From a virus (Duplodnaviria > Caudoviricetes): a stretch of DNA of 62,735 nt. Below are positions 1 through 60,407 of the stretch, one piece after another (position 1 is the stretch's first letter; each line of letters begins with the position of its first letter). The stretch lies in IMG/VR virus record IMGVR_UViG_3300002461_000940, positions 1-62,735 of that record; one strand, written 5' to 3'. The position numbers and the translations under genes were made by a program. Below the pieces are notes generated by a model. It was given only the letters and a program-made list of their open reading frames with translations. It was not told the origin of the DNA and ran no database searches.

Positions 1-94
1 ATCCGGGGTCTTAAATCCAAATCAGTCAGCTACGCATGTAGATCCAATCGGCAATGGCTTGCGGACGGGGGTTCGATTCCCCCCGGTTCCACCA
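1..94 (+). ncRNA. ssrA: tmRNA, 3' portion
   Basis: Ends GCGGACGGGGGTTCGATTCCCCCCGGTTCCACCA (T-arm plus acceptor strand and CCA). The upstream sequence is not a tRNA cloverleaf and includes the tmRNA-like CGCATGTAG segment. Confidence 0.9.
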
Positions 95-1751: not shown

Positions 1752-2192
1752 CTACCTGAGCCTGGCGCGTTGGTCTTCCCAGAGCGCGGGCGGGTCGACC
1801 GCCAGGTCAAACAGCGTGACGTGGTTGGGCATGGCGTCATCCAGGATGGCGGCCACGATGTCCGGCGCCAGCGTGGTCAGGTTAACCATCCGGCTGACGT
1901 AGCTGTTGTCGATCCCTTCCCGGGCGGCGATCTCCTTGAGGGACTTGGCATCGCCCGACTCCAGCATGGCCAGCCAGCGGTGACCCCTGGCCAGCGCCAG
2001 CTGCAACGGCGTGGTGGCCGTGTCCCAGGGTCTGGCCTTCGCTGGTTGGCCCGTCACCGGATCGATCGGCAGCGTGACCAGCTTGCGCCCGCTGCGGCGT
2101 TTGATCCGGATCGGCACCGACAGCGTCACCCGCCCGTCGCTGGCAGCGATGACAGTCGTCTCGCCGGTCTTCTGGATGCTCGTCTCGCTCAT
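1752..2192 (-). CDS. Recombinase-associated HTH protein
   Basis: ATGA-coupled to the recombinase; LARGHRW...SLKEIAAREGIDNSYVSRMVNLTTLAPDIV helix-turn-helix typical of genes following these recombinases. Confidence 0.75.
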   Translation of the reverse strand: MSETSIQKTGETTVIAASDGRVTLSVPIRIKRRSGRKLVTLPIDPVTGQPAKARPWDTATTPLQLALARGHRWLAMLESGDAKSLKEIAAREGIDNSYVSRMVNLTTLAPDIVAAILDDAMPNHVTLFDLAVDPPALWEDQRARLR

Positions 2193-3544
2193 GCTGCGAC
2201 TTCGTCTGGCAGGCGCTCAGCCGCGGGCAGCAACTCCAGCACCACGCGTTCGACCCCGTTGGCTCGCAGCCGGACCTCCAGGTTGTTGGGCGAGATGATG
2301 ACCTTCTCGACCATCAGATTGACGATTCGCGTCTGCTCGGCGGGAAAGAGTTGGTCCCATATCGCATCGAGCCGCAGCATGGCCACGGAGACCTTGGCCT
2401 CGTCCAGCGTCGGATCCAGCTGAAGTGCGCGAGGCAGTACGTCGGCCAGCATCTCCGGCGCCCGCAGCGTCGAGCGCAACTGGTCCAGCACCGCCGACTC
2501 CAACTCCGCGGCCGGCAGCCGCGGTAGGCCCGACGCCCCCGCGTGCTCCTTGGCATCGCGTTGCGGCACGTAGTACCTGTAGCGGCGACCGTTGGGCTTG
2601 GTGACGTGGTGTGGCGACATCGCTCGCCCATCGCTGCCGAAGACCAGGCCCTTGAGCAACTGTGGCACCGTGGCACGCGTGGTGTTGCCACGGACCCGGC
2701 CATTGGTCGCCAGGATCGTGTGCACCTCACTCCAGACGTCCCGGCTGATGATCGCCGGGTGCTCGCCCTGGACCCACTCATCGCGGTGCTTCAGCTCGCC
2801 CAGGTAGGTCCGGTTGTGGATCAGCTTGTAGATCAGCGTCTTGTCGATCGGCTTGCCGTCGCGCACCCGGCCGTCCTGCGTGGTCCAGGACTTCGAAGTG
2901 GCTCCGTCCAGCTTCAGCTCCTTGACGAGCAGCGTGCCTGAGCCGAGTTCGACAAATCGCCGGAAGATGTGGCGGACCAACTTCGCCTCGGCTTCGTTGG
3001 GCACCAAGCGCCGGTTCTTGACGTCGTAGCCGAGTGGCGGAATGCCGCCCATCCAGATGCCCTTGCGTTTGCTGGCGGCGAACTTGTCGCGGATGCGCTC
3101 GCCGGTCACCTCGCGCTCGAACTGCGCGAATGACAGCAGGACGTTCAGCATCAGCCGACCCATCGAGGTCGTCGTGTTGAACTGCTGCGTCACCGACACG
3201 AACGATACGCCGCGGCGCTCGAACACCTCGACCATCTTCGAGAAGTCGGCCAGGCTGCGAGTCAGGCGGTCGATCTTGTAGACCACCACCACGTCGATCT
3301 TGCCGGCATCGATGTCGGCCAGGAGGCGCTTGATCGCCGGGCGCTCCATGTGTCCGCCCGAGTACGCGGGGTCGTCATAGTCGTCTGTGACCGGGATCCA
3401 TCCCTCGGCACGCTGGCTGGCGATGTAGGCGTGGCCGGCATCGCGCTGGGCGTCGATCGAGTTGTATTCCTGGTCCATGCCCTCGTCGGTCGACTTGCGG
3501 GTGTAGACCGCGCAGCGCAGGCGCCGCTTCAGCGTCTCAGTCAT
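2189..3544 (-). CDS. Large serine recombinase (integrase)
   Basis: AVYTRKST catalytic motif, VVVYKIDRLTRS, recombinase domain (PPLGY, YLG). Start MTETLK overlaps the upstream stop (ATGA). Confidence 0.95.
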   Translation of the reverse strand: MTETLKRRLRCAVYTRKSTDEGMDQEYNSIDAQRDAGHAYIASQRAEGWIPVTDDYDDPAYSGGHMERPAIKRLLADIDAGKIDVVVVYKIDRLTRSLADFSKMVEVFERRGVSFVSVTQQFNTTTSMGRLMLNVLLSFAQFEREVTGERIRDKFAASKRKGIWMGGIPPLGYDVKNRRLVPNEAEAKLVRHIFRRFVELGSGTLLVKELKLDGATSKSWTTQDGRVRDGKPIDKTLIYKLIHNRTYLGELKHRDEWVQGEHPAIISRDVWSEVHTILATNGRVRGNTTRATVPQLLKGLVFGSDGRAMSPHHVTKPNGRRYRYYVPQRDAKEHAGASGLPRLPAAELESAVLDQLRSTLRAPEMLADVLPRALQLDPTLDEAKVSVAMLRLDAIWDQLFPAEQTRIVNLMVEKVIISPNNLEVRLRANGVERVVLELLPAAERLPDEVAA

Positions 3545-4041
3545 CGCTGGCCTCCCTTCTTCGCCTTCTGCTTTGGCGTCGAGATCGGCTTGATGCCGAA
3601 GAACACGGGGCCCGACCATCGGGTGCCGGTGATCTCGCGGGCAATCATGGACAGGCTGGGAAACATCCGGCCCTCGAATTCGTACTGGCCATCTGCCGTT
3701 ACAGCCACGCGGTAGGCCACGCCACGGTACTCCCGGGTGAGGAGGGTGCCCGCCGCAGGGCGGAAGTCGCGGTCGCGCTTCTTGACCTTGCCGGTGGCCA
3801 GTAGCGACGCGATGCGGCGACTGTTGCGGTCGAGCAGTTGCGGGTTGACCTGGCGGAACGCCTGCTCTTGCAGCCGGTAGGCGATGCGGCGCTCCAGGAA
3901 CTGCCGGTTGTGCGTTGGCGGGTCGGCGTCGAATAGGCTCAGCCAGAGCGACTTGATCGCAGGCATCTCAAGGTCTGACAGGCCAGCAATCTTTGCGGCC
4001 ACGGTTGGCGGTGTCGTCCAGGTGTTTGTAGGTGCGTTCAT
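3541..4041 (-). CDS. DUF2924 family protein
   Basis: LERRIAYRLQE...GTLLTREYRG...SLSMIAREITGTRWSGPVFFG; usual partner of these recombinases. Confidence 0.85.
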   Translation of the reverse strand: MNAPTNTWTTPPTVAAKIAGLSDLEMPAIKSLWLSLFDADPPTHNRQFLERRIAYRLQEQAFRQVNPQLLDRNSRRIASLLATGKVKKRDRDFRPAAGTLLTREYRGVAYRVAVTADGQYEFEGRMFPSLSMIAREITGTRWSGPVFFGIKPISTPKQKAKKGGQR

Positions 4042-4256
4042 CGGGCTTTCCTGACCTCGTTGTTGACGGGGTCTGCATGAACGCGCTGGTCGCCAGAAAA
4101 GCCAAGGTCAAACTCGCTCTCCAGTGGATGCTGCTGCGCGACTCGAATACCGGCAGTCCGCAGCCGCACCAGGCCGTTGGCCAGCAGCCCCGCGACTTCC
4201 TGGCGCCGCTGCGCCGGCGTCATCGCCTCCGGCGGCGTGTGTTTGATCTGGTGCAT
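4038..4256 (-). CDS. Small hypothetical protein of the recombinase operon
   Basis: 72 aa, coupled to DUF2924; PEAMTPAQRRQEVAGLLANGLVRL. Confidence 0.65.
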   Translation of the reverse strand: MHQIKHTPPEAMTPAQRRQEVAGLLANGLVRLRTAGIRVAQQHPLESEFDLGFSGDQRVHADPVNNEVRKAR

Positions 4257-10415: not shown

Positions 10416-11287
10416 GCTTCCCGATCATCACGGCCGACCAGCGCCTGGCCGAACCGCGCGGCGTCAAAGGTGTGCTGGTGGGCAAGAGCGGCCTAGGAAA
10501 GACCAGCCAGTTGTGGACCCTGGACGCGGCTGCGACGCTGTTCCTCGACCTGGAGGCCGGCGACCTCGCGGTGGAGGGCTGGGCCGGCGACACGATCCGC
10601 CCGCGCACCTGGCCCGACTGCCGCGACTTCGCGGTCTACATCGGCGGCCCCAACCCGGCGCTACGCGATGACCAGGCCTACAGCCAGGCGCACTACGACG
10701 CCGTGTGCGAGCGCTTCGGTGACGCCGCTGTGCTCGACAAGTACGACACCGTCTTCGTCGACTCCATAACCGTGGCCGGACGCCTGTGCCTGCAGTGGTG
10801 CCGGGGACAGCCGCAGGCCTACTCCGAGAAAACCGGCAAGCCCGACAGCCGCGGCGCCTACGGCCTACTTGGCGCCGAGATGCTCGGCTGGCTGACACAT
10901 CTGCAGCACACCCGGCGCAAGAACGTCTGGTTCGTCGGCATCTTGAACGAGGCGCTGGACGACTTCAACCGCCGCGTCTTCTCACTGCAGATCGACGGTT
11001 CGAAGACGGGGCTGGAGTTGCCCGGCATCGTCGACGAGGTCGTGACGCTGGCCGAGTTGAAGACCGACGACGGCACGCCTTACCGCGCATTCATCTGCCG
11101 AACGCTGAACCCGTGGTCCTTCCCCGCCAAGGACAGGTCTGGCCGCCTGGAGATGGTCGAGGAACCGCACCTTGGCCGGCTCATGCAGAAGATCGCCGGC
11201 CCCGCCAAGCCCGCCTTGCAGCGCCTCGAGTTCGCTCGGCCGCCCGCCACCACCACCCCCGAATCCATTCCGAATCAGGAGTCCTGA
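10412..11287 (+). CDS. AAA_24/Sak4-like ATPase
   Basis: Walker A GKSGLGKT, LFLDLEAG, VFVDSIT, AKDRSG. Confidence 0.85.
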   Translation: MSFPIITADQRLAEPRGVKGVLVGKSGLGKTSQLWTLDAAATLFLDLEAGDLAVEGWAGDTIRPRTWPDCRDFAVYIGGPNPALRDDQAYSQAHYDAVCERFGDAAVLDKYDTVFVDSITVAGRLCLQWCRGQPQAYSEKTGKPDSRGAYGLLGAEMLGWLTHLQHTRRKNVWFVGILNEALDDFNRRVFSLQIDGSKTGLELPGIVDEVVTLAELKTDDGTPYRAFICRTLNPWSFPAKDRSGRLEMVEEPHLGRLMQKIAGPAKPALQRLEFARPPATTTPESIPNQES

Positions 11288-11289
11288 AC

Positions 11290-11895
11290 ATGACCTACTT
11301 CGATTTCAATTCCGCTCCCGAGCAAGCTTCCTTCGATCTGATCCCCAAGGGTGAGCTCGTCCGCGTGCGCATGACGATCCGCCCCGGTGGCTACGACGAC
11401 GCGTCGCAGGGCTGGACTGGCGGCTTTGCGACCCGCAGCGCCACCACCGGCTCGGTGTACTTGAACTGCGAGTTCGTGGTCACCGAGGGCAAGTACGCGC
11501 GCCGCAAGATGTGGTCGCTGATCGGCCTGCACAGCCCCAAGGGTCCGGAGTGGGCCAACATGGGCCGGACCTTGATCAAGGCCGTCCTCAACTCGGCGCG
11601 CGGCATCCACCCTGGCGACAGCAGCCCTGCCGCGCAGAACGCGCGCCGCATCAGTGGCTTCGCTGACCTGGAAGGCGTCGAGTTCCTCGGCAAGGTGGAC
11701 TGGGACAAGGACCAAAACGGCCAGGACAAGTGCGTCATCAAGGCGGCGATCACGCCTGACCACAAGGACTACGCCGCGTTGATGGCCGGCGCAACCGCCG
11801 TGCCGGCCAGCACCCCCGCGGCGCCCAACGCCTACGCCCAAGCCACGGGCCGCGCGCCGGTGCCGGTGCCGGGCCGGCCCAGCTGGGCCCAGTGA
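11290..11895 (+). CDS. Putative ssDNA-binding protein (DUF669-like)
   Basis: FDLIPKG...YLNCEFVVTEGKYARRK; Pro/Ala tail ending PSWAQ; follows the Sak4-like gene. Confidence 0.65.
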   Translation: MTYFDFNSAPEQASFDLIPKGELVRVRMTIRPGGYDDASQGWTGGFATRSATTGSVYLNCEFVVTEGKYARRKMWSLIGLHSPKGPEWANMGRTLIKAVLNSARGIHPGDSSPAAQNARRISGFADLEGVEFLGKVDWDKDQNGQDKCVIKAAITPDHKDYAALMAGATAVPASTPAAPNAYAQATGRAPVPVPGRPSWAQ

Positions 11896-11910
11896 GGGAG
11901 GGGCACAGCC

Positions 11911-13584
11911 ATGATGCTTCGACCTCGTCAATCGTTACTGGTCGAGCGCACGCTGGCGGCGCTCGATGAGTTCGGCAACACCCTGGCGGTGGCGCCCACC
12001 GGTTCCGGCAAGACCGTCATGCTGTCGGCGGTCGCTGGCCGGCTGCTGGAGGAGCCCGACGCCAAGGCCTGCATCCTCGCCCACCGTACCGAGCTGACTG
12101 GGCAGAACCGCGGCAAGTTCAGCCGCGTCAACCCCGGCGTCAGCACTTCGGTGTTCGACGCCAACGAGAAGTCGTGGCAGGGCCAGGCCACCTTTGCAAT
12201 GGTCCAGACCTTGTCGCGGCCGACGCACCTGGTCCAGATGCCGACACTCGATCTGCTGGTCATCGACGAGGCGCACCATGCCTCGTCGCCGACCTACCGG
12301 ACCGTCATCGACAAGGTGCTGGCGAGGAATCCCACGGCGGCGATCTTCGGCGTCACGGCCACGCCGAACCGCGGTGACGGTCAGGGACTGCGTGAGGTCT
12401 TCTCCAACGTGGCCGACCAGATCACGCTCGGCGAAATGATCGCCGCCGGCCATCTGGTGCCGCCGCGCACCTTCGTGATCGACGTCGGCGTGCAGGAGGC
12501 GCTGAAGCAGGTGCGCCGGACCGCGATGGACTTCGACATGGACGAGGTCGCCTCGATCCTGGACAAGCGCCTGATCACCGAGGCGGTCATCAGGCACTGG
12601 AAGGACAGGGCGGCCGCGCGAAAGACCATCGTCTTCTGTTCGACGGTGGCCCACGCACAGAACGTGTGCGACGCGTTCGTCGCCGCCGGCGTGACCGCGG
12701 TGCTCGTGCACGGCGACCTGTCCGATGCCGATCGCAAACGGCGCTTGTCCGACTTCGAGTCCGGCCAAGCCCAGGTGGTGGTCAACGTCGCGGTGCTCAC
12801 CGAGGGCTACGACCACACCCCGACCGGCTGCGTTGTGCTGCTGCGGCCGAGCTCCTACAAGAGCACGTTCATTCAGATGGTCGGCCGCGGCCTGCGCACC
12901 GTGGATCCGGAGGAGTTCCCGGGCGCCATCAAGACCGACTGCATCGTGCTCGATTTCGGCACCGCCAGCCTGATGCACGGGTGCCTCGAGCAGGAGGTCA
13001 GCCTCGATGGCCACACCAGTGACGGTGTGGCGCCGACGAAGGACTGCCCCGAGTGCGACGCCGTCGTGCCGCTCGCCTGCATGGAGTGTCCGCTGTGTGG
13101 CTTTGTGTGGGAGCGACAAGAGCGCGACCACGATGTCCTGACCGATTTCGTGATGAGCGAGATCGACCTCCTCAAGCGGTCCAATTTCCGCTGGTGCGAC
13201 CTGTTCGGCCAAGACGATGCGCTGATGGCCACCGGCTTCAACGCCTGGGCCGGCGTCTTCTTCCTCAACGGGCGCTGGCACGCGGTGGGTGGCGGCAACG
13301 GGCTGAGTTCTCACCTGCTTGCCGTCGGTGAGCGCATGGTTTGCATGGCCAAGGCCGACGACTGGCTCAACGACCACGAGACCGCGGACTCGGCGCACAA
13401 GACCCGGCGCTGGCTCAACGAGCCGCCCACCCCCAAGCAGCTGAGTTTCTTGCCCCAGCAGATGCGGGCGGACTTCGGCATGACTCGCTACCAGGCGTCG
13501 GCCCTGTTGTCGTTCCAGTTCAACAAGGCGTCGATCAAGCGCCTCGTCGAGGCGGCCAACGACAGTCTTCTGGAGGCGGCGTGA
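11911..13584 (+). CDS. SF2 DEAH helicase with Zn ribbon
   Basis: APTGSGKT, DEAHH, TATP, QMVGRGLR, CPEC...CPLC. Confidence 0.95.
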   Translation: MMLRPRQSLLVERTLAALDEFGNTLAVAPTGSGKTVMLSAVAGRLLEEPDAKACILAHRTELTGQNRGKFSRVNPGVSTSVFDANEKSWQGQATFAMVQTLSRPTHLVQMPTLDLLVIDEAHHASSPTYRTVIDKVLARNPTAAIFGVTATPNRGDGQGLREVFSNVADQITLGEMIAAGHLVPPRTFVIDVGVQEALKQVRRTAMDFDMDEVASILDKRLITEAVIRHWKDRAAARKTIVFCSTVAHAQNVCDAFVAAGVTAVLVHGDLSDADRKRRLSDFESGQAQVVVNVAVLTEGYDHTPTGCVVLLRPSSYKSTFIQMVGRGLRTVDPEEFPGAIKTDCIVLDFGTASLMHGCLEQEVSLDGHTSDGVAPTKDCPECDAVVPLACMECPLCGFVWERQERDHDVLTDFVMSEIDLLKRSNFRWCDLFGQDDALMATGFNAWAGVFFLNGRWHAVGGGNGLSSHLLAVGERMVCMAKADDWLNDHETADSAHKTRRWLNEPPTPKQLSFLPQQMRADFGMTRYQASALLSFQFNKASIKRLVEAANDSLLEAA

Positions 13585-14003
13585 GATGTGCCGTTTGCTC
13601 TCGCCAAGCCAAGGGCTACGGCTGGTTCAACCCCCGGCTCAAGGCCAGCGATCCCGCGCGCACCTCCGATCGGTGGGTGTTCTGCTGTCGTCGGTGCCAG
13701 GACGCCTTCTGCCACCTCATGAACAAGACGGAGGGTCGGATGATCGATCCCAGTGACATGGAAATCGCTGCCATGCAGGCCTGCCTGCAGCCGCTGGGCG
13801 AATACGTCGGCGAGATCGGCATGCAACGCCCGCTGGCCGAGTACACGCGTGAGGAGGTGCTGACGCTGATCGAGACGGTGGTGACCGCCTATCAGGACCG
13901 CATGCTCGAAGAGCATGAGCGCATGGCCGCCAAGGATCGTGAATTCCTGGAACAGCGCCTGGCCCGCCAGGGACAGCCGGCCCGTGGGGGAGCGCCGTTC
14001 TGA
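13581..14003 (+). CDS. DUF6511-like protein with N-terminal Cys cluster
   Basis: GTG start overlapping the helicase stop; CAVC...CCRRCQ; RPLAEYTREEVLTLIETVV. Confidence 0.7.
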   Translation: MRCAVCSRQAKGYGWFNPRLKASDPARTSDRWVFCCRRCQDAFCHLMNKTEGRMIDPSDMEIAAMQACLQPLGEYVGEIGMQRPLAEYTREEVLTLIETVVTAYQDRMLEEHERMAAKDREFLEQRLARQGQPARGGAPF

Positions 14004-17883: not shown

Positions 17884-18318
17884 ATGGGCAGCCGCGTGAG
17901 AGCACAACGGTGGGACATCGACGAGGTGGCAAGCTGGCTGGTCGAAGGTGCCCGCACGGCACATCGACTGCCGCCAGTCCGGGTCCAGGGCTACTTCAAC
18001 GTCTGGCCGACGATCGTGCGCAGCGACTACGAGCGCATGGCCAAGGACGACGAGCCCGTCTACCGCTTCCCACCTGAGCCTGCCGCGATCGACCGGATGA
18101 TGGAGACGATGCGGTGGGTGCAGTGGCTGGCGGTCGAGCAACGGCATCTGGTCTGGATGCGTGCCGAGCGCTACCCCTGGCGGGAGATCTGCAAGCGCTT
18201 TGGCTGCGATCGAACGACGGCGTGGCGTCGCTGGCAGGTCGCGATGAGCATGATCGTCGACCACCTCAATGCCGGGACCGAAGGCAAGCTCACGGATCGA
18301 CGCGAGGTGATTTCATGA
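17884..18318 (+). CDS. DUF6362-like protein, putative late transcription regulator
   Basis: LPPVRVQGY..WP; sigma region 4-like HTH LVWMRAERYPWREICKRFGCDRTTAWRRW. Confidence 0.75.
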   Translation: MGSRVRAQRWDIDEVASWLVEGARTAHRLPPVRVQGYFNVWPTIVRSDYERMAKDDEPVYRFPPEPAAIDRMMETMRWVQWLAVEQRHLVWMRAERYPWREICKRFGCDRTTAWRRWQVAMSMIVDHLNAGTEGKLTDRREVIS

Positions 18319-18555: not shown

Positions 18556-18749
18556 GCTCGCCTAGCGTCAGGGTGCAAACCGAGGTTTGCACCAGGTTGC
18601 AGGTTGCAGCCAGCCGCCCCTGAACACCTGCCAGAACTCGCCCGCGTTTGATCTGCCGGCGGGTTCTTTCGCTTCATCGCAGCGCCACTTGCGGCCCGCG
18701 ACAGGTTCTTCCACCTGTCCGGGCCGCAGCCTTTTTGGACGGGCCCCAC

Positions 18750-20153
18750 GTGAACATGCTCAACGTCGACTACCGCAAGGTCGAGACGCTGATCCCCTAC
18801 GCCCGCAATCCGCGGACCCACTCCGACGCGCAGGTGGCCAAGATCGCCGCCAGCATCGTCGAGTACGGCTGGACCAACCCGGTGCTGGTCGATGGCGACA
18901 ACGGCGTCATCGCCGGCCACGGTCGATTGGCGGCGGCGCGCAAGTTGGGCCTGGACGAGGTGCCGGTGATCGAGCTGGGCCACCTGTCGCCGGCACAGAA
19001 GCGCGCCTACGTGATCTCGGACAACCGCCTGGCGCTGGACGCCGGCTGGGACGAGGAACTGCTGGCGCTGGAGATCGCTGAGTTGTCCGAGGCCGGGTAC
19101 GACCTCGCGCTGACTGGCTTCGACGATGCCGAGATCCAGGGCTTACTCGCGGACAACGACGGCGAAGACGAGGGCGCGAAGGACGACGGCGCGCCTGACG
19201 CGGCTGACGACGTCCCCGATGCACCGGCCGTGCCCGTATCGCGGGCCGGCGACGTGTGGGCCCTTGGGCAGCACCGGCTGATCTGTGGTGATGCCACCAA
19301 CGCCGCCGTCGTCACCAGCCTCTTGCAGGGCGAACGCGCCCGCCTGTGCTTCACCTCGCCGCCCTACGGCAACCAGCGCGACTACACCAGCGGTGGCATC
19401 GGGGACTGGGACGGCTTGATGCGCGGCGTGTTCGCCAACCTGCCGATGACCGACGACGGCCAGGTGTTGGTCAATCTCGGGCTGATCCACCGCGACAACG
19501 AGTTCATCCCTTACTGGGACGCCTGGCTCGGCTGGATGCGCACGCAGGACTGGCGCCGCTTCGCCTGGTATGTCTGGGACCAGGGGCCCGGGATGCCCGG
19601 CGACTGGTCCGGTCGGTTCGCGCCGAGCTTCGAGTTCGTCTTCCACTTCAATCGCAGCAGCCGCAAGCCGAACAAGATCGTCCCCTGCAAACACGCCGGC
19701 CAGGAATCGCATCTGCGTGCGGACGGCTCGTCCACGGCCATGCGCAGCAAGGAGGGCGAGGTCGGTGGCTGGACGCATGCTGGCCAACCTACCCAGGACA
19801 GTCGCATCCCGGACTCGGTGATCCGCGTCATGCGCCACAAGGGCAAGATCGGCAAGGACATCGACCACCCGGCCGTCTTCCCGGTCGCGCTTCCCGAGTT
19901 CGTGGTCCAGGCCTTCACGGACCGCGGTGACCTGGTGTTCGAGCCGTTCGGCGGCAGCGGCACGACCATGCTCGCCGCCGAGCGAACGGGCCGAGTGTGT
20001 CGCAGCGTAGAGATTGCGCCGGAGTACGTCGACGTGGCCGTTCGGCGCTTCCAGCAGAACCATCCCGGCGTTCCGGTCACCCTCGTGGCGACCGGGCAGT
20101 CGTTCGATGAGGTCACCAAGGAGCGGCTGTTCCTCGTGGAGGCAGCCCGATGA
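18750..20153 (+). CDS. ParB-N-terminal DNA methyltransferase (SPPY, probably N4-C)
   Basis: PYARNPRTH, GHGRLAAA, TSPPY, HPAVFP, FEPFGGSGTT. Confidence 0.92.
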   Translation: MNMLNVDYRKVETLIPYARNPRTHSDAQVAKIAASIVEYGWTNPVLVDGDNGVIAGHGRLAAARKLGLDEVPVIELGHLSPAQKRAYVISDNRLALDAGWDEELLALEIAELSEAGYDLALTGFDDAEIQGLLADNDGEDEGAKDDGAPDAADDVPDAPAVPVSRAGDVWALGQHRLICGDATNAAVVTSLLQGERARLCFTSPPYGNQRDYTSGGIGDWDGLMRGVFANLPMTDDGQVLVNLGLIHRDNEFIPYWDAWLGWMRTQDWRRFAWYVWDQGPGMPGDWSGRFAPSFEFVFHFNRSSRKPNKIVPCKHAGQESHLRADGSSTAMRSKEGEVGGWTHAGQPTQDSRIPDSVIRVMRHKGKIGKDIDHPAVFPVALPEFVVQAFTDRGDLVFEPFGGSGTTMLAAERTGRVCRSVEIAPEYVDVAVRRFQQNHPGVPVTLVATGQSFDEVTKERLFLVEAAR

Positions 20154-21418
20154 GTGCCTCCTGGCTGGCCGACAAGATCGAGCAGTGGCCGACAGTCAAG
20201 CTGCTGCCCTACGCCCGCAACGCCCGCACGCATTCACCCGAGCAGGTGGCGCAGATCGCCGCCTCGATCGCCGAGTTCGGTTTCACGAATCCGATCCTGG
20301 CGGGTAGCGACGGCGTGATCGTGGCCGGGCACGGCCGGCTGGCCGCAGCCCAGAAGCTCGGGCTGGACATCGTGCCGGTCGTTGTGCTGGACCACTTGAA
20401 TCCCAACCAGCGCCGCGCGCTGGTGATTGCCGACAACCGTATCGCCGAGAACGCGGGCTGGGATGAAGCCATGCTGCGGGTCGAACTGGCCGCCCTCCAG
20501 GGTGACGACTTCGATCTCTCGCTCACCGGCTTCGATGCCGATGCCCTGGCCGAGCTGATGGCAGGCGACGGTAGTGACGGCGAGGGCGGGACCGATGATG
20601 ACGCCGTGCCCGAGGTCGCCGAGACGCCGATCTCACGACCCGGCGACGTCTGGTTGATGGGTGGGCACCGCGTGCTGTGCGGCGATGCCACCTTGACCGA
20701 CAGCTACGGCCGGCTCCTGGGCGGCGAGTTGGTGGACATGGTCTTCACCGACCCGCCCTACAACGTCAACTACGCCAACAGCGCCAAGGACAAGATGCGC
20801 GGCAAGGACCGCGCGATCCTGAACGACAACCTGGGTGATGGCTTCTACGACTTCCTGCTCGCGGCCTTGACGCCGACCATCGCCAGCTCCCGCGGCGCGG
20901 TCTACGTGGCGATGTCTTCCAGCGAACTCGACGTGCTGCAGGCCGCCTTCCGTGCCGCTGGTGGCCACTGGTCGACTTTCATCATCTGGGCCAAGAACAC
21001 CTTCACCCTTGGCCGCGCCGATTACCAGCGCCAGTACGAGCCGATCCTGTATGGCTGGTCCGAGGGCGGGCAGCGTCACTGGTGCGGCGACCGCGACCAG
21101 GGTGACGTCTGGAACATCAAGAAGCCGCAGAAGAACGATTTGCACCCGACGATGAAGCCGGTGGAGCTGGTCGAGCGCGCGATCCGCAACTCCAGCCGGC
21201 CGGGCAATATGGTGCTCGACCCGTTCGGCGGCTCAGGCACGACGCTGATCGCCGCCGAAAAGTCGGGGCGACTGGCGAGGCTGATCGAACTGGACCCCAA
21301 GTACGTCGACGTGATCGTGCGTCGATGGCAGGACTGGACCGGGCAGAAGGCCACCCGTGAGTCCGATGGCCTGGACTTTGATCAAGCTGCGTGCGATTCG
21401 TCGACGATCTCGCAGTGA
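20150..21418 (+). CDS. ParB-N-terminal DNA methyltransferase (DPPY, probably N6-A)
   Basis: PYARNARTH, TDPPYN, HPTMKP, LDPFGGSGTT. Confidence 0.92.
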   Translation: MSASWLADKIEQWPTVKLLPYARNARTHSPEQVAQIAASIAEFGFTNPILAGSDGVIVAGHGRLAAAQKLGLDIVPVVVLDHLNPNQRRALVIADNRIAENAGWDEAMLRVELAALQGDDFDLSLTGFDADALAELMAGDGSDGEGGTDDDAVPEVAETPISRPGDVWLMGGHRVLCGDATLTDSYGRLLGGELVDMVFTDPPYNVNYANSAKDKMRGKDRAILNDNLGDGFYDFLLAALTPTIASSRGAVYVAMSSSELDVLQAAFRAAGGHWSTFIIWAKNTFTLGRADYQRQYEPILYGWSEGGQRHWCGDRDQGDVWNIKKPQKNDLHPTMKPVELVERAIRNSSRPGNMVLDPFGGSGTTLIAAEKSGRLARLIELDPKYVDVIVRRWQDWTGQKATRESDGLDFDQAACDSSTISQ

Positions 21419-21750
21419 ATCACGAAGCCCGTCAGGTAGGGCAGGCCGCGCGGGATGCCGTAGTCCTTGCTGGTCTGGCGTCCGATGGTCCAGCCCATCC
21501 ATTGCTGGGTGGCGGCGTTGATCGCGTCCGGCAGGGTCTGGCCCCGGTACAGCGCGTTCTGAACGTCGTCCGCAAAGTGCCGCCCGTGGCGGCTGTCCAG
21601 GAAGATCCGGACCGACTCCAAAGGCTCGCCGGTGGCATCGGCGATCGCGGTCATTGCCAAGGGCCAGGCTGCGGTCGCCAGCTCGTCCATCGTGTTCCAG
21701 AATCCCCAGGCGTCGTTCTGGGTGGCGGGGATCTGTGTTGTGGTGGTCAT
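21382..21750 (-). CDS. Small hypothetical protein
   Basis: MTTTTQIPATQNDAWGFW...FLDSRHGRHFADDV; GGAG SD; preceded by the conserved motif. Confidence 0.75.
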   Translation of the reverse strand: MTTTTQIPATQNDAWGFWNTMDELATAAWPLAMTAIADATGEPLESVRIFLDSRHGRHFADDVQNALYRGQTLPDAINAATQQWMGWTIGRQTSKDYGIPRGLPYLTGFVIHCEIVDESHAA

Positions 21751-21786
21751 CTCGGGCTCCGTGGCGTTGGTCGTTGCGATGCTTGT

Positions 21787-21818
21787 AGTAACGCGCTGTT
21801 GGGTCGGGAAGCCAAGCT
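21787..21818 (-). promoter_or_regulatory. 32-bp conserved motif, copy 1
   Basis: AGCTTGGCTTC-ccgaccc-AACAGCGCGTTACT on the minus strand. Confidence 0.75.
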
Positions 21819-21847
21819 CTTTGGTGCGACGAATTCGAGCTTCTTCA

Positions 21848-22207
21848 TCAACCCAGGCGCGCCACGTAGCGGGCGTAGTCACTGCCCTCGGGATTGACGT
21901 ACAGACGCGGGCGCCCGGGCGCGGTCACCTCTACGCATAGCTGACCGCCGTCTGCGCTGCCACCTTTGCCGCGGAGCCAATCGCGGGACGCCAGCAGGCG
22001 GCTGGCAAACGCATCGAACTCCGCCGGCGTGAGTTCCCGGGTTTCGGTGACGTAGACCTTGTCCTGTCCGTGCCCACCAACCTCGCTCAGGTCGACAGGC
22101 TTGCGGGCGAAGGGCAGCCGCACACCCAACTCCTCGACCTGGACGGCGGTGTCGCCGAATTGCAGGACGCGAGTGGTGCGCTCGATGGTGATGGTCATGC
22201 TGCTCAT
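21848..22207 (-). CDS. Small hypothetical protein (DUF6329-like C-terminus)
   Basis: MSSMTITIER...LYVNPEGSDYARYVA. Confidence 0.7.
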   Translation of the reverse strand: MSSMTITIERTTRVLQFGDTAVQVEELGVRLPFARKPVDLSEVGGHGQDKVYVTETRELTPAEFDAFASRLLASRDWLRGKGGSADGGQLCVEVTAPGRPRLYVNPEGSDYARYVARLG

Positions 22208-22224
22208 CGGTGTGCCCTCGTTGC

Positions 22225-22740
22225 TCAGGCGATGCGGTAGACGCGATCGCCGCCCTGGGCCTTGTCGGAGACCAGGTTCAAGCCAAGCTTCTTCTTGAAG
22301 GCGCCGGCGAAGGTGCCGCGTACCGTGTGCGCCTGCCAGCCGGTGGCCTCGCAGAGTTGCTTCACCGTCGCGCCCTCGGGCCGGCGCAGCATCTGGATCA
22401 CGGCGGCCTGCTTGCTGTGCTCGCGGGTGCGGGGCTTGGCCTCGGCGCGTTCCTTGGCCCACGAGGCCTCTGCGGCCGCCACAGCGGCCTCGACCTCGGG
22501 GTCGGCATCCAAGGGCGCAGGCGCGGGACGGGCGCGCCCCAGGGCGTCGTAGCCTTCGGGCGAGACGGTGTAGGCGGTGCCGTCCTGGTTGATGAGGTGA
22601 CGCTTGCTCAGGCCTTCCAGCACCTTGGTGCGGGCCCCGCCTTTGACGTTGTCGGGAAACCATTCGATCTTGCCGCTGGTGTGCTCGATGGCGTAGGCCA
22701 GGATGGCGTGCTGTGCAGGGGTCAGTTGGATGCTGGTCAT
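22225..22740 (-). CDS. DUF3489 family wHTH protein
   Basis: SKQAAVIQMLRRPEGAT...TGWQAHTVRG..AG..KKKLGL. Confidence 0.88.
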   Translation of the reverse strand: MTSIQLTPAQHAILAYAIEHTSGKIEWFPDNVKGGARTKVLEGLSKRHLINQDGTAYTVSPEGYDALGRARPAPAPLDADPEVEAAVAAAEASWAKERAEAKPRTREHSKQAAVIQMLRRPEGATVKQLCEATGWQAHTVRGTFAGAFKKKLGLNLVSDKAQGGDRVYRIA

Positions 22741-22774
22741 GTGTTGCTCCGGTGGGGGTTGATCGGGTGAGTTG

Positions 22775-22806
22775 ATGAACGCGCTGTTCGGAAGTGAAGC
22801 CAAGCG
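22775..22806 (-). promoter_or_regulatory. 32-bp conserved motif, copy 2
   Basis: CGCTTGGCTTC-acttccg-AACAGCGCGTTCAT on the minus strand. Confidence 0.75.
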
Positions 22807-22833
22807 CTTTCTGATGGGTTTGTCGTCGCTTGA

Positions 22834-23025
22834 TCAGCAGGTGGTCTTGCTAGCTGCTTGGCGCGCTTGCTCGACGCCCGCGTTGAAGGCGGCTTCGAGT
22901 GCATCACGCAGCGTCCAGACGGCGACCTCGTGGAAGTCCAGGCTGTCGGACTTGCGTGTCTGCAAGGTCTCGATGTCGAGGTGCTTGCTGGCGATCTCGG
23001 CGAGGAGCTTGTCGATCGGGGTCAT
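22834..23025 (-). CDS. DUF6900-like small protein
   Basis: IASKHLDIETLQTRKSDSLDFHEVAVW.LRDALEAAFNAG. Confidence 0.8.
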   Translation of the reverse strand: MTPIDKLLAEIASKHLDIETLQTRKSDSLDFHEVAVWTLRDALEAAFNAGVEQARQAASKTTC

Positions 23026-23059
23026 GTTGGCGTCCTGTGGTGCGTGGGTTGATGGACGT

Positions 23060-23091
23060 ATGAACGCGCTGTTCAGCGGTGAAGCCAAGCT
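23060..23091 (-). promoter_or_regulatory. 32-bp conserved motif, copy 3
   Basis: AGCTTGGCTTC-accgctg-AACAGCGCGTTCAT on the minus strand. Confidence 0.75.
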
Positions 23092-23111
23092 CTTTCTGCT
23101 TGGCTCGGCGA

Positions 23112-23381
23112 TCAGCGATTGATTTCGCGCAGGACGCGCAAGCCCTCCTGGGCGAGGGTGAGCGCCGCCGTCTGGAAGGCGATCTCGGCCATCCAGGGCG
23201 CCGCCTTGGCATCGGCGAGCAACTCGTCGACGACGGGCTTGGACTTCGCCCGCATCGCGACGCACGCCGCTTCGAGTTGGTCGTTGCTTGCGTTACGCGT
23301 TTCCGGGCAGATCCGCACCAGCACCGTGAGGGCGGCTTGGCCCAAGCGCTGGCCCAGGGTGTCGATCGCTGCGTGGTTCAT
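23112..23381 (-). CDS. Small hypothetical protein
   Basis: 89 aa, SD GAAGGA, preceded by the motif. Confidence 0.7.
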   Translation of the reverse strand: MNHAAIDTLGQRLGQAALTVLVRICPETRNASNDQLEAACVAMRAKSKPVVDELLADAKAAPWMAEIAFQTAALTLAQEGLRVLREINR

Positions 23382-23416
23382 GTCAGGGTCCTTCGAGGGG
23401 GTGTGGCGACGACTTG

Positions 23417-23448
23417 ATGAACGCGCTGTTCTCGATGGAAGCCAAGCT
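23417..23448 (-). promoter_or_regulatory. 32-bp conserved motif, copy 4
   Basis: AGCTTGGCTTC-catcgag-AACAGCGCGTTCAT on the minus strand. Confidence 0.75.
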
Positions 23449-23486
23449 CAATCTGCCCGCTGACCCAGGATTCATTGAGACGACCG

Positions 23487-24017
23487 ATGGGGATTTCGAT
23501 CCGGGCCTACGCGAGACACCGAGGGGTGACCGACACCTCGGTCCACAAGGCGATCCGAGCCGGTCGCATCACGCCGGAAGGGGACGGCACGATCGACGCT
23601 GCTCGGGCCGACGCCGAATGGGCCCGCAACTCCGACGCACCCCGGGTCGGCACGCGCAGCAAGCCGGTGCGCGTCGCTGTCCCCGAGCCCGCGGCCGAAG
23701 CACCGGCCACATTGCCTGGAAGTTCGGGCACATCACTACTGCAGGCCCGCACCGTCAACGAGGTCGTCAAGGCGCAGACGAACAAGGTGCGGCTCGCTCG
23801 ACTCAAGGGCGAACTGGTGGATCGCCCGCAGGCGATCGCGCATGTCTTCAAGTTGGCGCGGTCAGAGCGCGACGCCTGGTTGAACTGGCCGGCGCGGATC
23901 TCGGCACAGATGGCCGCACGCCTCGGCATCGAGCCGCACACGATGCACGTTGCGCTGGAGGCCGCGGTGCGCGAGCACCTTCAAGAGTTGGGCGAGTTGC
24001 GGCCCCGGGTGGACTGA
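23487..24017 (+). CDS. Terminase small subunit
   Basis: N-terminal HTH MGISIRAYARHRGV; coiled coil LARLKGELVDR; coupled to the large subunit. Confidence 0.85.
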   Translation: MGISIRAYARHRGVTDTSVHKAIRAGRITPEGDGTIDAARADAEWARNSDAPRVGTRSKPVRVAVPEPAAEAPATLPGSSGTSLLQARTVNEVVKAQTNKVRLARLKGELVDRPQAIAHVFKLARSERDAWLNWPARISAQMAARLGIEPHTMHVALEAAVREHLQELGELRPRVD

Positions 24018-48509: not shown

Positions 48510-48541
48510 AGCTTGGCTTCAGGGCCGAACAGCGCGTTCAT
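48510..48541 (+). promoter_or_regulatory. 32-bp conserved motif, copy 5
   Basis: AGCTTGGCTTC-agggccg-AACAGCGCGTTCAT on the plus strand. Confidence 0.75.
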
Positions 48542-48568: not shown

Positions 48569-48859
48569 ATGACCAGCAGATACAAGAAGGCCGTGATCGA
48601 GGATGTCGTCTCTCACGATATCGACGAGGCCCAACAGTCCAAGCTCCTCGACCTGTTTGAGAACGCCATGAAGTCAGTCGCAACCACACTGGTCCGCGAG
48701 GCCCGATTCGACACGAGCGACTTCGCAACCGCGAAGCAGGGAAACTGCGATGGCTTTCAGCTGACGCTGCAGCGTCTGCACGTTGACGGTCGAGACGTCT
48801 GGCAAGGTCAGTTCAGCAGAGCCGAAAAGCGGCTCACCGTGATCGCATCCCTCGAATAG
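48569..48859 (+). CDS. Small hypothetical protein
   Basis: MTSRYKKAV..., SD GGAG, preceded by motif copy 5. Confidence 0.7.
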   Translation: MTSRYKKAVIEDVVSHDIDEAQQSKLLDLFENAMKSVATTLVREARFDTSDFATAKQGNCDGFQLTLQRLHVDGRDVWQGQFSRAEKRLTVIASLE

Positions 48860-49827: not shown

Positions 49828-51876
49828 TCACTCGGCCATGGCCTTCAACAGCGCGTCGCGCGCGTCGGAGTAGAACTGGATGTCGATTTTGGTTGCCATG
49901 TCGTCGGACAAGTCGACCAACTGGCGCCGACACGCGACCGGCATCAGCAGCGACGTCGCGCCTTTCTCAACGGCGATCTCGGCAATCGTGACGGCGTTGT
50001 GGACGGGTTCAAGCGAGCCCCCGAGATTGATCTCGCCGACGATGATCAAGCCGCCACGTACGCTTCGCTTCAGCAGCGAGGTGCAAAGGGCCACCAACGA
50101 GGCCACGCCGAGCTTGGCCCCAGACTTCGCCGCGTCAAACGCCCGAAGCTGCACCGTGAACTCATGCTGCCGAGGGTCCTTGTCGCCAACCAACTGCAGC
50201 GCCCTGGCGTACAGGTTTTGCTCGGCGAAGCCGATGCTCTCGCGGAACGCGGGAGGAATGGGCTTGTTGAGGACCTTCACGCCAGACCCAGGGCCTTCGT
50301 TGACCTCGATGCGGTAGAGGCCCGAGTTTTCCTCCCCGCCACCGGGGCTGATGGTCCATACCTGTCCAGGCTCCAGCGGGTCGCCGCCGATGCTGTTGTC
50401 GCTTTGGAGCTCCGGTGTGGAGACGAACTTCTCGACGCCGTCGGCGCCCATGACGTAGCTGAAGTGGGTGTTCCGAAACTCGGCGGCGCCGACCCTCTTC
50501 TGCTGCTCCTTGACGCGGCGCCGGACCTCCATGGCGATGCGGACGGCCCATTCCAGGTCTTCGTCGGGGACCGGGACATCCGCGCTTGGGTACAGCAGCT
50601 TGAGCAAGCCGCTGACCGTCTTGTTGACGGCATTCGTGTCCCGGCCGGACAGGGCGCCGCCAAAGAAGACGCGGTTCTGCAACTCGCTCACTCGGCTCTG
50701 GTTCCGAAGTTGACTCCAGCACTCGGACAGGAAGTCGCTGACCAGGCCGAAGTGATTCGTGACCAGGTCCTTGTTGATCTTGGGCACGTCCCAACCAGGC
50801 AAGAACGCATGGATGCGGTCCATGAAGGCAGTGTCGTCCCGCATCTCCGGCGGCATAGGCCCAAACAAGTGCCCCACGCGTTGCTGGTGTTCCACATCGA
50901 CGTCGAAGTTGCCGACCAAAACGATGCTGCCATCCGCGCGGATGCTCTCCTTGCCACGGCTGAACTCGCCGGACTCCATGTAGCCCTTCATGATGTTCAC
51001 GCCGTCCTTCTGGTCGAAGGAGATGCCTGACACCTCGTCGAAGCAGACCACGTCGTACTGGCACACCAAGCCTCGACGGCCCTTGGGTGTGTTCTCCACG
51101 AACATCTTGGCCACAGTGGCTTTTCCACCTGAGATGAGGTGGGCGTAGGGCGAAACCTGCTGGAACAGATGGCTCTTGCCCGTGCCGCGCGGACCGAGCT
51201 CCACCAGGTTGTAGTTGCGCTCCACAAAGGGCACCATGCGCAGGAGCAGGGCGTTTCGCTGGCGGTCGCTCAGCCCGCCTGACTCAATGCCGATGGATCG
51301 GAGCAGAAAGCACTTCCATTCTTCGGTGGTGAACGCCTGGCGGGCTTTGGTCAGGGTGTCCAACACGTCGCGCTTGGACAGCTGAATCTCCCGTAGCGAC
51401 GTGATCCCAAATGGACGTCCTTTGGCCTCCTGGGCAATCGCCACATCGAACGTCACGCCCAGCTCGGCATAGAAGCCGCCGGTCAACATGCGTTCGTGCT
51501 GGTTGACCAGCTCGCTGCTGATCCGCACATCCGTCAGCCGAAGGCTCGGCAGGCTGGCGACGTACTCGCCCTTGTTGTCCACGCGCGCCGTCACGAGGTC
51601 GATGATCTTCACCTCGCCGGTTTCCAGCGCTTTGGCCTTGAACAGCTCCTCCTCGCCAGCGCGTACCGTGCGGGACTTGAGCTGGCGCTGCACGATCTCA
51701 AGCCCCTCGTCGATCTCCTCTTGGTCGGTGCTAGCGCAATAGCGCCCGAGCATGAACTCGACAACGTAGGTTGGCACCGGAAACTGGCGACTGAAGGTGC
51801 GGACCAAGTCTTTCCGGACCAGATACCCGTCCAGTACCGAAGCGGCTTTCTTGTCTATCTGATCCAGTTCAATCAT
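49828..51876 (-). CDS. brxL: BREX BrxL (AAA+ ATPase with Lon-like C-terminal domain)
   Basis: VPTYVVEFMLG, ELGPRGTGKSH, FDEV, MKGYMESGEFSRG, AFMDRIH. Confidence 0.92.
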   Translation of the reverse strand: MIELDQIDKKAASVLDGYLVRKDLVRTFSRQFPVPTYVVEFMLGRYCASTDQEEIDEGLEIVQRQLKSRTVRAGEEELFKAKALETGEVKIIDLVTARVDNKGEYVASLPSLRLTDVRISSELVNQHERMLTGGFYAELGVTFDVAIAQEAKGRPFGITSLREIQLSKRDVLDTLTKARQAFTTEEWKCFLLRSIGIESGGLSDRQRNALLLRMVPFVERNYNLVELGPRGTGKSHLFQQVSPYAHLISGGKATVAKMFVENTPKGRRGLVCQYDVVCFDEVSGISFDQKDGVNIMKGYMESGEFSRGKESIRADGSIVLVGNFDVDVEHQQRVGHLFGPMPPEMRDDTAFMDRIHAFLPGWDVPKINKDLVTNHFGLVSDFLSECWSQLRNQSRVSELQNRVFFGGALSGRDTNAVNKTVSGLLKLLYPSADVPVPDEDLEWAVRIAMEVRRRVKEQQKRVGAAEFRNTHFSYVMGADGVEKFVSTPELQSDNSIGGDPLEPGQVWTISPGGGEENSGLYRIEVNEGPGSGVKVLNKPIPPAFRESIGFAEQNLYARALQLVGDKDPRQHEFTVQLRAFDAAKSGAKLGVASLVALCTSLLKRSVRGGLIIVGEINLGGSLEPVHNAVTIAEIAVEKGATSLLMPVACRRQLVDLSDDMATKIDIQFYSDARDALLKAMAE

Positions 51877-51879
51877 GCG

Positions 51880-57010: not shown

Positions 57011-57013
57011 CGT

Positions 57014-60394: not shown

Positions 60395-60407
60395 GGGGAA
60401 TCAGGCC

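Follow-up and report, generated by a model that had tools for sequence, protein, structure and literature searches.

A near-invariant 30-bp promoter-like motif heads small accessory genes in AcaML1-like prophages

What is the short sequence that recurs in front of small leftward genes in a prophage, and what reads it? The question is raised by IMG/VR record IMGVR_UViG_3300002461_000940, a whole prophage record of 62,735 nucleotides (nt), which is referred to here, at its full length, as the window. A preliminary description of this DNA noted that small genes on the minus strand of positions 21382–23448 are each headed by the same 32-bp motif, and suggested an undescribed phage regulon. As argued below, the motif is probably, with some reserve, the core of a promoter specific to one phage lineage and fused to a short C/A-rich leader. 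It would have been multiplied along an array of accessory genes and would act as the joint at which these are shuffled.

The minus strand of 21382–23448 holds four copies of GCTTGGCTTC-N6-GAACAGCGCGTT(CA/AC)T. Exact matches to CTTGGCTTC-N7-AACAGCGCGTT on this strand are found at 21790–21816, 22778–22804, 23063–23089 and 23420–23446, which confirms the four copies at the places first reported. The gaps between these copies and the ATG are 36, 34, 34 and 35 nt, in agreement with the reported 34–36 nt. TTGGCT and GTTCAT are 17 nt apart, the 7-nt middle is different in every copy, and the gene calls for the small open reading frames (ORFs) of the array hold as well. A pattern of 20 fixed bases, with up to 3 mismatches allowed, gives six sites in the window, i.e. 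two copies beyond the four of the preliminary description: an exact one on the plus strand at 48511–48541, and one with 2 mismatches on the minus strand at 4077–4107. The six sites are:

23417..23448, minus strand: motif copy at the array head, in the gap facing terS (the terminase small subunit gene); exact match; 49.0 bits; 35 nt before the ATG at 23381
23060..23091, minus strand: motif copy; exact match; 47.4 bits; 34 nt before the ATG at 23025
22775..22806, minus strand: motif copy; exact match; 51.2 bits; 34 nt before the ATG at 22740
21787..21818, minus strand: motif copy, GTTACT variant; exact core match; 41.9 bits; 36 nt before the ATG at 21750
48511..48541, plus strand: motif copy after the lysis genes; exact match; 47.5 bits; 27 nt before a 96-amino acid (aa) gene
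4077..4107, minus strand: motif copy with 2 mismatches; 42.2 bits; 35 nt before the DUF2924 start

The bit scores are those of a weight matrix made from other phages, under which the six sites score 42–51 bits and the rest of the window 8 bits or less. The element is therefore all-or-nothing, and the window has no intermediate sites. The number of sites (six) compares with a mean of 0.04 in 100 shuffles, none of which reaches six. The half-sites CAGCGCGTT and CTTGGCTT each occur three times outside the six copies, with about 1.3 expected; there is thus no separate use of them in the window. The copy at 4077–4107 is embedded in the 3′ end (the last codons) of a 72-aa ORF at 4038–4256 on the minus strand. 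The ORF is conserved: 18 genome loci encode protein-level relatives of it, and the identity in L160 is 58%. The promoter-like element that heads DUF2924 thus lies within a coding sequence.

The motif is found well beyond the window. Exact-pattern scans show it in at least 120 IMG/VR stretches and at least 120 genome stretches. The sample that was fetched consists of 241 loci plus the window, mostly fetched with the motif pattern itself, and holds 546 motif copies. A less biased view is given by the other copies in the same loci: with up to 5 mismatches allowed, 1 Mb of sequence yields 359 copies, and the reversed pattern none. In addition, among loci anchored on DUF6362 and chosen without the motif, 28 of the 32 that have at least 5.8 kb downstream carry it, and the other four have a diverged form, CTTGTCTTC-N13-GCGTTCAT or CTTGATTG...GCGTTCAT. 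The named host organisms among the matches listed are mostly Beta-, Gamma- and Alphaproteobacteria, and Acidithiobacillus is present too. Acidithiobacillus phage AcaML1, the only isolated phage with the region, has three copies and the same methylase-array-terminase order as the window. The motif is thus lineage-wide in AcaML1-like prophages of Proteobacteria and not a peculiarity of the window phage. Synteny is common to most fetched loci, with terS present in 87 of 120 viral loci and the DUF2924/recombinase context in 36 of 120 genome loci.

Five whole genomes of 3.2–5.7 Mb show where the copies lie on host chromosomes. Twenty-three of the 24 full copies fall within six prophage-sized clusters, each no larger than about 51 kb, and among these five genomes there is no spread of the motif over the chromosome. 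The layout of the clusters is that of the window (recombinase operon, array, post-lysis gene). The possibility raised at the outset, that the motif matches a host site used genome-wide, is therefore not borne out in these genomes, the copies being confined to prophage clusters.

Literature searches with the 12-mers CAGCGCGTTCAT and ATGAACGCGCTG gave no relevant paper among the matches listed. No published description of the motif was found, supplements and subscription journals being outside the search, and the term “undescribed” stands within that limit. The published account of AcaML1 that was consulted does not mention the motif.

Some relatives differ in their surroundings. The low-GC relatives L280, L283, L300 and L314 have the whole replication/DUF6362/methylase/array module, followed by no relative of terS or terL; the same early module is thus joined, as in a mosaic, to structural modules that differ. 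L326 and L327 have a motif-headed DUF2924/recombinase operon in the same direction as the replication genes and running into them; there the motif may drive the early operon as well. Three records have labels far from Proteobacteria, i.e. L205 and L182 (both Candidatus Nitrospira defluvii chromosome) and L170 (a metagenome-assembled genome labelled Bifidobacterium). Their phage genes are 66–87% identical to those of the window, with a TerL 87% identical to that of the window among them. They represent either cross-phylum spread or an assembly or binning error.

The anatomy of the motif is constant. All variants have CTTGGCTT and GCGTTCAT at a fixed distance, with 6 free nt between them. Rare copies are one base shorter, which gives a spacer of 16 bp instead of 17 bp, and the low-GC relatives carry a CAGAGCG variant in which CTTGGCTT and GCGTTCAT are still kept. 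TTGGCT, with four of the six bases of the −35 consensus TTGACA, is present in 465 of 472 unique copies, and the last position of the second hexamer (GTTCAT/GTTACT) is T in all 472. In its −35 sequence (near TTGACA) and its spacer length (17 ± 1 bp) the motif therefore agrees with sigma-70 promoters. When the invariant T is placed at −7, the two blocks occupy −36 to −29 and −14 to −7, the contact regions of a sigma-70-family holoenzyme, and the free 6 nt fall in the spacer. Seven nt after the invariant T there is a start-site-like step: a pyrimidine (+35) in 467, a purine (+36) in 406 and a pyrimidine in 453 of the 472 copies. A pyrimidine-purine-pyrimidine step is the usual start-site preference. 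The upstream flank is A-rich, and the downstream leader is C/A-rich and G-poor (40% C, 29% A).

The position of the motif is that of an operon head. In relatives with a single copy, the motif lies in the gap facing terS and heads the whole operon. In the low-GC relatives this is an operon of 3–4 genes, the inner genes of which are without the motif; inner genes therefore do not need it. In 121 of 134 loci the distance between the first copy and the start of terS, a divergent gene, is 18–64 nt. This leaves little room for another promoter, and one placed upstream would lie inside terS. The promoter geometry of the preliminary description is upheld by the location of the conserved blocks at −35 and extended −10 positions, together with the operon-head position in single-copy relatives. 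Three of the four array copies do have its GAAC-N5-GTTC dyad, but this is not a conserved feature among the 472 unique copies (GAAC in 288, and GTTACT in place of GTTCAT in 68), and the idea of an operator at the dyad was dropped.

Another symmetry was noticed upstream. A CCAAGC word (up to 1 mismatch) is found 9–13 nt upstream of the motif in 152 of 492 copies, e.g. at 23092–23103 of the window. Together with the GCTTGG of the motif it makes an inverted repeat, a partial palindrome GCCAAGC-N7-8-GCTTGGC that overlaps the first block. A coding remnant was also considered (ELGF..QRVH on the motif's own strand, MNALFxxEAK on the other) and rejected: the frame relative to the downstream ORFs varies, and the wobble positions are all invariant.

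The motif heads many different genes. A downstream ORF with a Shine-Dalgarno sequence follows 515 of the 546 copies, and 311 copies have the start codon 34–36 nt beyond the motif. The 492 complete downstream products form 53 clusters, of which 27 are recurrent, with many rarer small proteins; there are thus at least 27 families. The genes of the window that belong to the motif are:

23112..23381, minus strand: 89-aa gene, phrog_36268; the family follows the motif in 19 instances
22834..23025, minus strand: 63-aa DUF6900 gene (Pfam PF21841, E 2.2e-25); 82 motif-headed instances
22225..22740, minus strand: 171-aa DUF3489 gene (Pfam PF11994, E 3.1e-32); 101 instances, the commonest motif-headed family
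21848..22207, minus strand: 119-aa gene without a motif of its own, phrog_21303; the family is motif-headed elsewhere in 39 instances
21382..21750, minus strand: 122-aa gene, phrog_8020, the usual last gene of the array; 88 instances
48569..48859, plus strand: 96-aa gene without a family match, headed by the copy at 48511–48541; 12 instances
3541..4041, minus strand: DUF2924 gene (Pfam); motif-headed in 35 instances and in three further prophages
2189..3619, minus strand: large serine recombinase gene (Pfam), in the same operon (2189..4041) as DUF2924, headed by the copy at 4077–4107

The DUF3489 protein is a probable winged-helix DNA binder; its look-alikes in the structure atlas are all DUF3489. 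The 119-aa gene is presumably co-transcribed with DUF3489 in the window. All of the array proteins are in the PHROGs category “unknown”; they have no sequence relatives in the PDB, and their structure-atlas look-alikes are uninformative. Literature searches on DUF3489, DUF6900, DUF2924 and DUF6362 gave no paper on function.

Arrays have up to 7 copies as direct repeats, 247–1969 bp apart, in 95 different orders. A backbone of DUF6900, DUF3489, variable inserts and phrog_8020 is kept. Gene content compared between motifs across phages, with its recurrent families, kept backbone order and variable inserts, thus agrees with the modular motif-plus-gene cassettes first suggested. The regulon has to be redrawn in part: motif-headed cassettes do make up the array, but the motif is not confined to it and also heads the DUF2924/serine-recombinase operon and the post-lysis gene.

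Shuffling at the repeats, also suggested in the preliminary description, was studied with 86 arrays of at least three copies. Pairs of arrays with different cassette order were compared by high-scoring segment pairs (HSPs) with 88% identity or more. Of 310 internal HSP starts, 202 lie between −30 and +9 of the motif, and of 308 HSP ends, 146 lie between +30 and +69; each of these 40-nt windows is about one tenth of a typical cassette. Homology breakpoints therefore cluster at the motif, with the reservation that the array pairs lack phylogenetic independence and that a conserved island of any kind, lying between unrelated genes, would produce such a pattern too. The loose ends and joints of relatives' contigs, placed on the window, also lie at motif edges (22775, 22806 and 23417). 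The breakpoints are consistent with exchange that takes place at the module or runs through it, of the kind known from the promoter-early stem-loop (PeSL) cassettes discussed below.

The following scheme probably accounts for these data. CTTGGCTT, with TTGGCT, would be the −35 element and GCGTTCAT the extended −10 together with the −10, with 17 bp between them. The purine about 7 nt beyond the invariant T would be the transcription start, and the resulting leader, with its Shine-Dalgarno sequence, would measure about 29 nt; the start codon is 34–36 nt after the motif. In its simplest form one module would head the accessory-gene operon divergent from terS; in the clade of the window the module would have been copied before nearly every array gene, the DUF2924/serine-recombinase operon and the post-lysis gene. 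The presence of copies at three places is the ground for the proposal that array, recombinase operon and post-lysis gene form one regulon. The identical 30-bp modules would be joints for gain, loss and reordering of cassettes. A specificity factor encoded by the phage would read the module, the sigma-region-4-like DUF6362 being the best candidate.

Several known classes of recognition site were compared with the motif. Promoters of extracytoplasmic function (ECF) sigma factors have the consensus AAC-N16-17-CGT. The invariant CGT of the motif at positions 23–25 has GGCT, not AAC, at the required place; another register, with GAAC at 15–18 and CGT at 35–37, is found in 53 of 472 copies. The sigma-54 consensus is GG-N10-GC. 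The motif has GG at 3–4 followed by GA at 15–16, with A at 16 in 315 of 359 copies. A LexA/Cheo-type box has the consensus GAAC-N4-GTTC, and here the spacing is 5 nt, not 4, in a dyad that is not conserved among the 472 copies. The sigma-54, sigma-32, ECF and LexA registers were all rejected on account of their spacings.

The motif is conserved far above the neighbouring proteins (40–90% identity) and ordinary promoters, and a specific reader is therefore favoured. Family searches found no phage RNA polymerase and no complete sigma factor among the window proteins. The candidate named above is encoded as follows:

17884..18318, plus strand: DUF6362 gene (Pfam), 144 aa from the likely start

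Relatives of the DUF6362 protein have 54–66% identity to that of the window in 32 of 33 aligned cases and 90% in one. The modelled C-terminal domain superposes on sigma region 4 in the structures 5fgm, 8jzt and 1rio, with template modelling (TM) scores to target of 0.73–0.76 and root-mean-square deviations of 1.6–2.4 Å (5fgm, 0.75 and 1.6 Å; 1rio, 0.76). Weak ECF-sigma profile matches recur, the protein of the window matching TIGR02937 at E 0.05, and no Pfam sigma domain reaches the cut-off in DUF6362. The N-terminal half of the model is one helix and a low-confidence loop. Where relatives have another structural module, DUF6362 and the array are still found together in one early module. On these thin grounds the DUF6362 protein, about 3.5 kb from the array, may be regarded as the best candidate for the cognate factor, and as a candidate only. 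A search for covariation of DUF6362 and the motif gave an APRTAQR.WE helix variant in loci that have CAGAGCG in place of CAGCGCG; as these belong to a single low-GC clade, no weight was given to it.

A number of observations weigh against the scheme as a whole or in part, and they are brought together here. Sigma-70 needs A at the second position of the −10 hexamer. The motif has A there in none of 472 copies, so that the hexamer departs from sigma-70 promoters at this position, and a sigma-70 consensus scan of 21000–24000 gave no promoter; host RNA polymerase alone may be unable to use the motif. The conservation figures at fixed positions are inflated, because most of the loci were fetched with that pattern. 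The RNA data consist of metatranscriptome contigs of relatives, a small share, and show neither starts nor strand. The fixed start-codon distance and the conserved leader would also fit a signal at the RNA level. As to DUF6362, the Foldseek E-values are not significant (best 0.25), the match to region 4 covers only the C-terminal 60–80 residues, and the model has no sigma region 2; DUF6362 is therefore not a complete sigma factor. Lastly, genome G001 has a motif-headed recombinase operon without DUF6362 and without DUF3489, and an array-bearing degraded prophage (L329, G005:C49) is without DUF6362, which in that case was lost by deletion. The deletion in L329, at 10830–13819, took the RuvC-like gene, DUF6362 and the first half of methylase 1, and left the array and its motifs intact.

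Taken together, the missing A at the second −10 position, the high conservation and the confinement to prophages argue that recognition probably needs a specificity factor encoded by the phage. The anatomy, conservation and position of the motif, the modularity of the cassettes and the confinement to prophages are observed; the transcription start, the need for a factor, the identity of that factor and the timing of expression are inferred. A bolder proposal can be made, and it is rather unlikely to hold in full: that AcaML1-like phages own a specificity system by which DUF6362, acting singly or with a partner, would bring host RNA polymerase to 30-bp promoters that the host cannot read. These would drive the integrase operon and a self-shuffling library of accessory genes, possibly for counter-defence.

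Four other explanations have to be set beside a promoter. An unlikely one is that the conserved blocks are mainly the binding site of a phage regulator, e.g. the motif-headed DUF3489 winged-helix protein, by which a weak promoter overlapping the site would be turned on or off; in that case the sequence would be conserved on account of the regulator, not of RNA polymerase. Conservation far beyond that of ordinary promoters is in keeping with such a site, as are the position of DUF3489 as the commonest motif-linked gene (101 instances), its presence in four of the five genomes with the motif, and the partial palindrome over the first block in 152 of 492 copies. The motif is nevertheless asymmetric and directional, its two blocks are unrelated, and the GAAC/GTTC dyad is not conserved. 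The blocks coincide with −35 and extended −10 positions, the free part being where a spacer would lie; moreover G001 keeps the motif without DUF3489 or DUF6362. It is improbable that the motif acts in RNA, as a leader element for each cistron of a long transcript and a processing site or the target of a translational regulator. That idea would explain the start-codon distance of 34–36 nt in 311 of 546 copies, the C/A-rich, G-poor leader and the lack of terminators between cassettes. Contigs from RNA libraries of relatives also cross motif copies, which is weak evidence as DNA may be in those libraries. No Rfam family is found, however, single folds of the six copies are no better than shuffles (z-scores of −1.84 to +1.47), and RNAalifold gives −0.41 kcal/mol for 60 diverse copies with a column-shuffle control. 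The bare inner genes of single-copy operons and the position of the head copy, where a promoter further upstream would sit inside terS (18–64 nt, 121 of 134 loci), also speak against a signal in RNA.

A site-specific recombination site for the serine recombinase, comparable to integron attC or a shufflon, with the promoter look being secondary, is very improbable. The motif does bound the cassettes, breakpoints cluster there, orders differ among phages (95 of them), a variable 6-nt centre lies between TTC and GAA, and a copy is present at the recombinase operon. On the other hand, only TTC/GAA (3 bp) is inverted and the blocks CTTGGCTTC and GAACAGCGCG are otherwise unrelated, and the central spacer, inherited with its gene, varies among copies of one array. 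Recombination between direct repeats 247–1969 bp apart would delete genes, a fixed orientation and start-codon distance are not needed for recombination, and some relatives have a single copy. Finally, it is scarcely credible that the motif is the borrowed recognition site of an alternative sigma factor or global regulator of the host. The GCGTT of the −10 part resembles the CGT core of ECF-type promoters, and the motif works across hosts of several proteobacterial classes; yet 23 of 24 full copies are in the six prophage-sized clusters of the five genomes, none are spread over the chromosome, and sigma-54, ECF and LexA-type spacings are not found.

How does a lineage-specific promoter module of this kind compare with known systems? 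The PeSL cassettes of T4-type phages are described as consisting of a strong sigma-70-like promoter and a terminator stem-loop (PMC2839356, PMC4122927). They are repeated before small non-essential genes in a plastic region, and recombination between the modules shuffles the genes (PMC2839356). The motif is like PeSLs in being a conserved module before small accessory ORFs of a variable region, and recombination joints are likewise found at the module, with the reservation that the array pairs are not phylogenetically independent. It is unlike them in having no stem-loop or terminator (0 terminator-like sites, no consensus fold) and a −10 that is not of the sigma-70 type. The phages differ as well: those with the motif are temperate with lambda-like packaging, and carry the module before their integrase operon too.

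Morons of lambdoid and Burkholderia phages are accessory genes with their own promoter inserted between core genes, and the 96-aa gene after the lysis genes is in a classic moron position. The moron criteria are an own promoter and an own terminator flanking one gene (PMC5567305). Terminators are absent from the motif-headed genes, with only 20 nt between a stop codon and the next motif, and instead of an unrelated promoter each time there is one identical promoter common to at least 27 gene families. The start-associated sequence (SAS) of Cluster K mycobacteriophages, about 13 bp next to the ribosome-binding site, is another conserved repeat that closely precedes many start codons in the phages of a single cluster. 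The motif shares this placement with SAS but is 30 bp long, lies 34–36 nt upstream and has −35/−10 geometry.

The lambda promoters pRE, pI and paQ, activated by CII, are non-consensus promoters that need a factor, and the CII site is TTGC-N6-TTGC around −35. An integrase promoter coordinated with promoters against the main lytic direction is a feature of CII that would be found here too, but no CII homologue was found in the window and the blocks differ from TTGC-N6-TTGC. Specificity factors of phages include T7-type RNA polymerase, MotA/AsiA at T4 middle promoters, and the sigma-region-4-like late activators RinA and ArpU. The motif resembles these promoter classes in being near-invariant and confined to phages; another shared feature is DUF6362, a small region-4-like protein whose gene lies a short distance upstream of those for packaging. 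Unlike them, DUF6362 is not a detected member of the T7-polymerase, MotA/AsiA or RinA/ArpU families. The motif is thus set apart from known repeated regulatory cassettes and morons by its temperate lineage, its lack of a terminator part and its non-canonical −10, and further by its near-invariance across hosts and the inclusion of the integrase operon.

A short, near-invariant sequence that can be searched for therefore marks the accessory genes of a common prophage group with one isolated phage (AcaML1) on record. Listing of small phage genes guided by the motif has already given at least 27 families. The integrase operon appears to be linked with accessory genes in one regulon. Promoter multiplication with cassette exchange, so far described for lytic T4-type phages, would occur in temperate phages as well. 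If a factor encoded by the phage does read the motif, this would be a new promoter-specificity system and a possible orthogonal expression part. If there is a DUF6362 specificity system, the motif would be a search key for hundreds of phage effector genes.

The window begins with the 3′ end of a transfer-messenger RNA (tmRNA) gene, followed by a leftward arm with XRE, M78-peptidase and recombinase genes and a rightward replication arm. The replication arm ends in DUF6362 and two ParB-methyltransferase genes; then come the leftward array, terS, terL and the structural genes. The genes on the two sides of the array are:

18648..21418, plus strand: two tandem genes, each a ParB N-terminal domain fused to an N6/N4 DNA methyltransferase
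23487..24017, plus strand: terminase small subunit gene (terS), divergent from the array head, with AcaML1 gpNu1 synteny

The ParB-methyltransferase pair, or a single copy, is kept beside the array in nearly all relatives. The tmRNA 3′ end (1–94, plus strand), at the very start of the record, is the only Rfam match in the window and may be the attachment site. The large serine recombinase at 2189–3619 is the only recombinase found in the window; an ORF at 412–1578 is without a family match. A BREX-like defence cluster at 49828–62621, on the minus strand, adjoins the right end of the prophage. Its members are:

49828–51876, minus strand: BrxL, followed in the cluster by an 809-aa protein without a family match
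54216–56048, minus strand: GmrSD
56045–57010, minus strand: DUF932 protein
57014–60394, minus strand: PglX-like methyltransferase, followed in the cluster by a 737-aa protein

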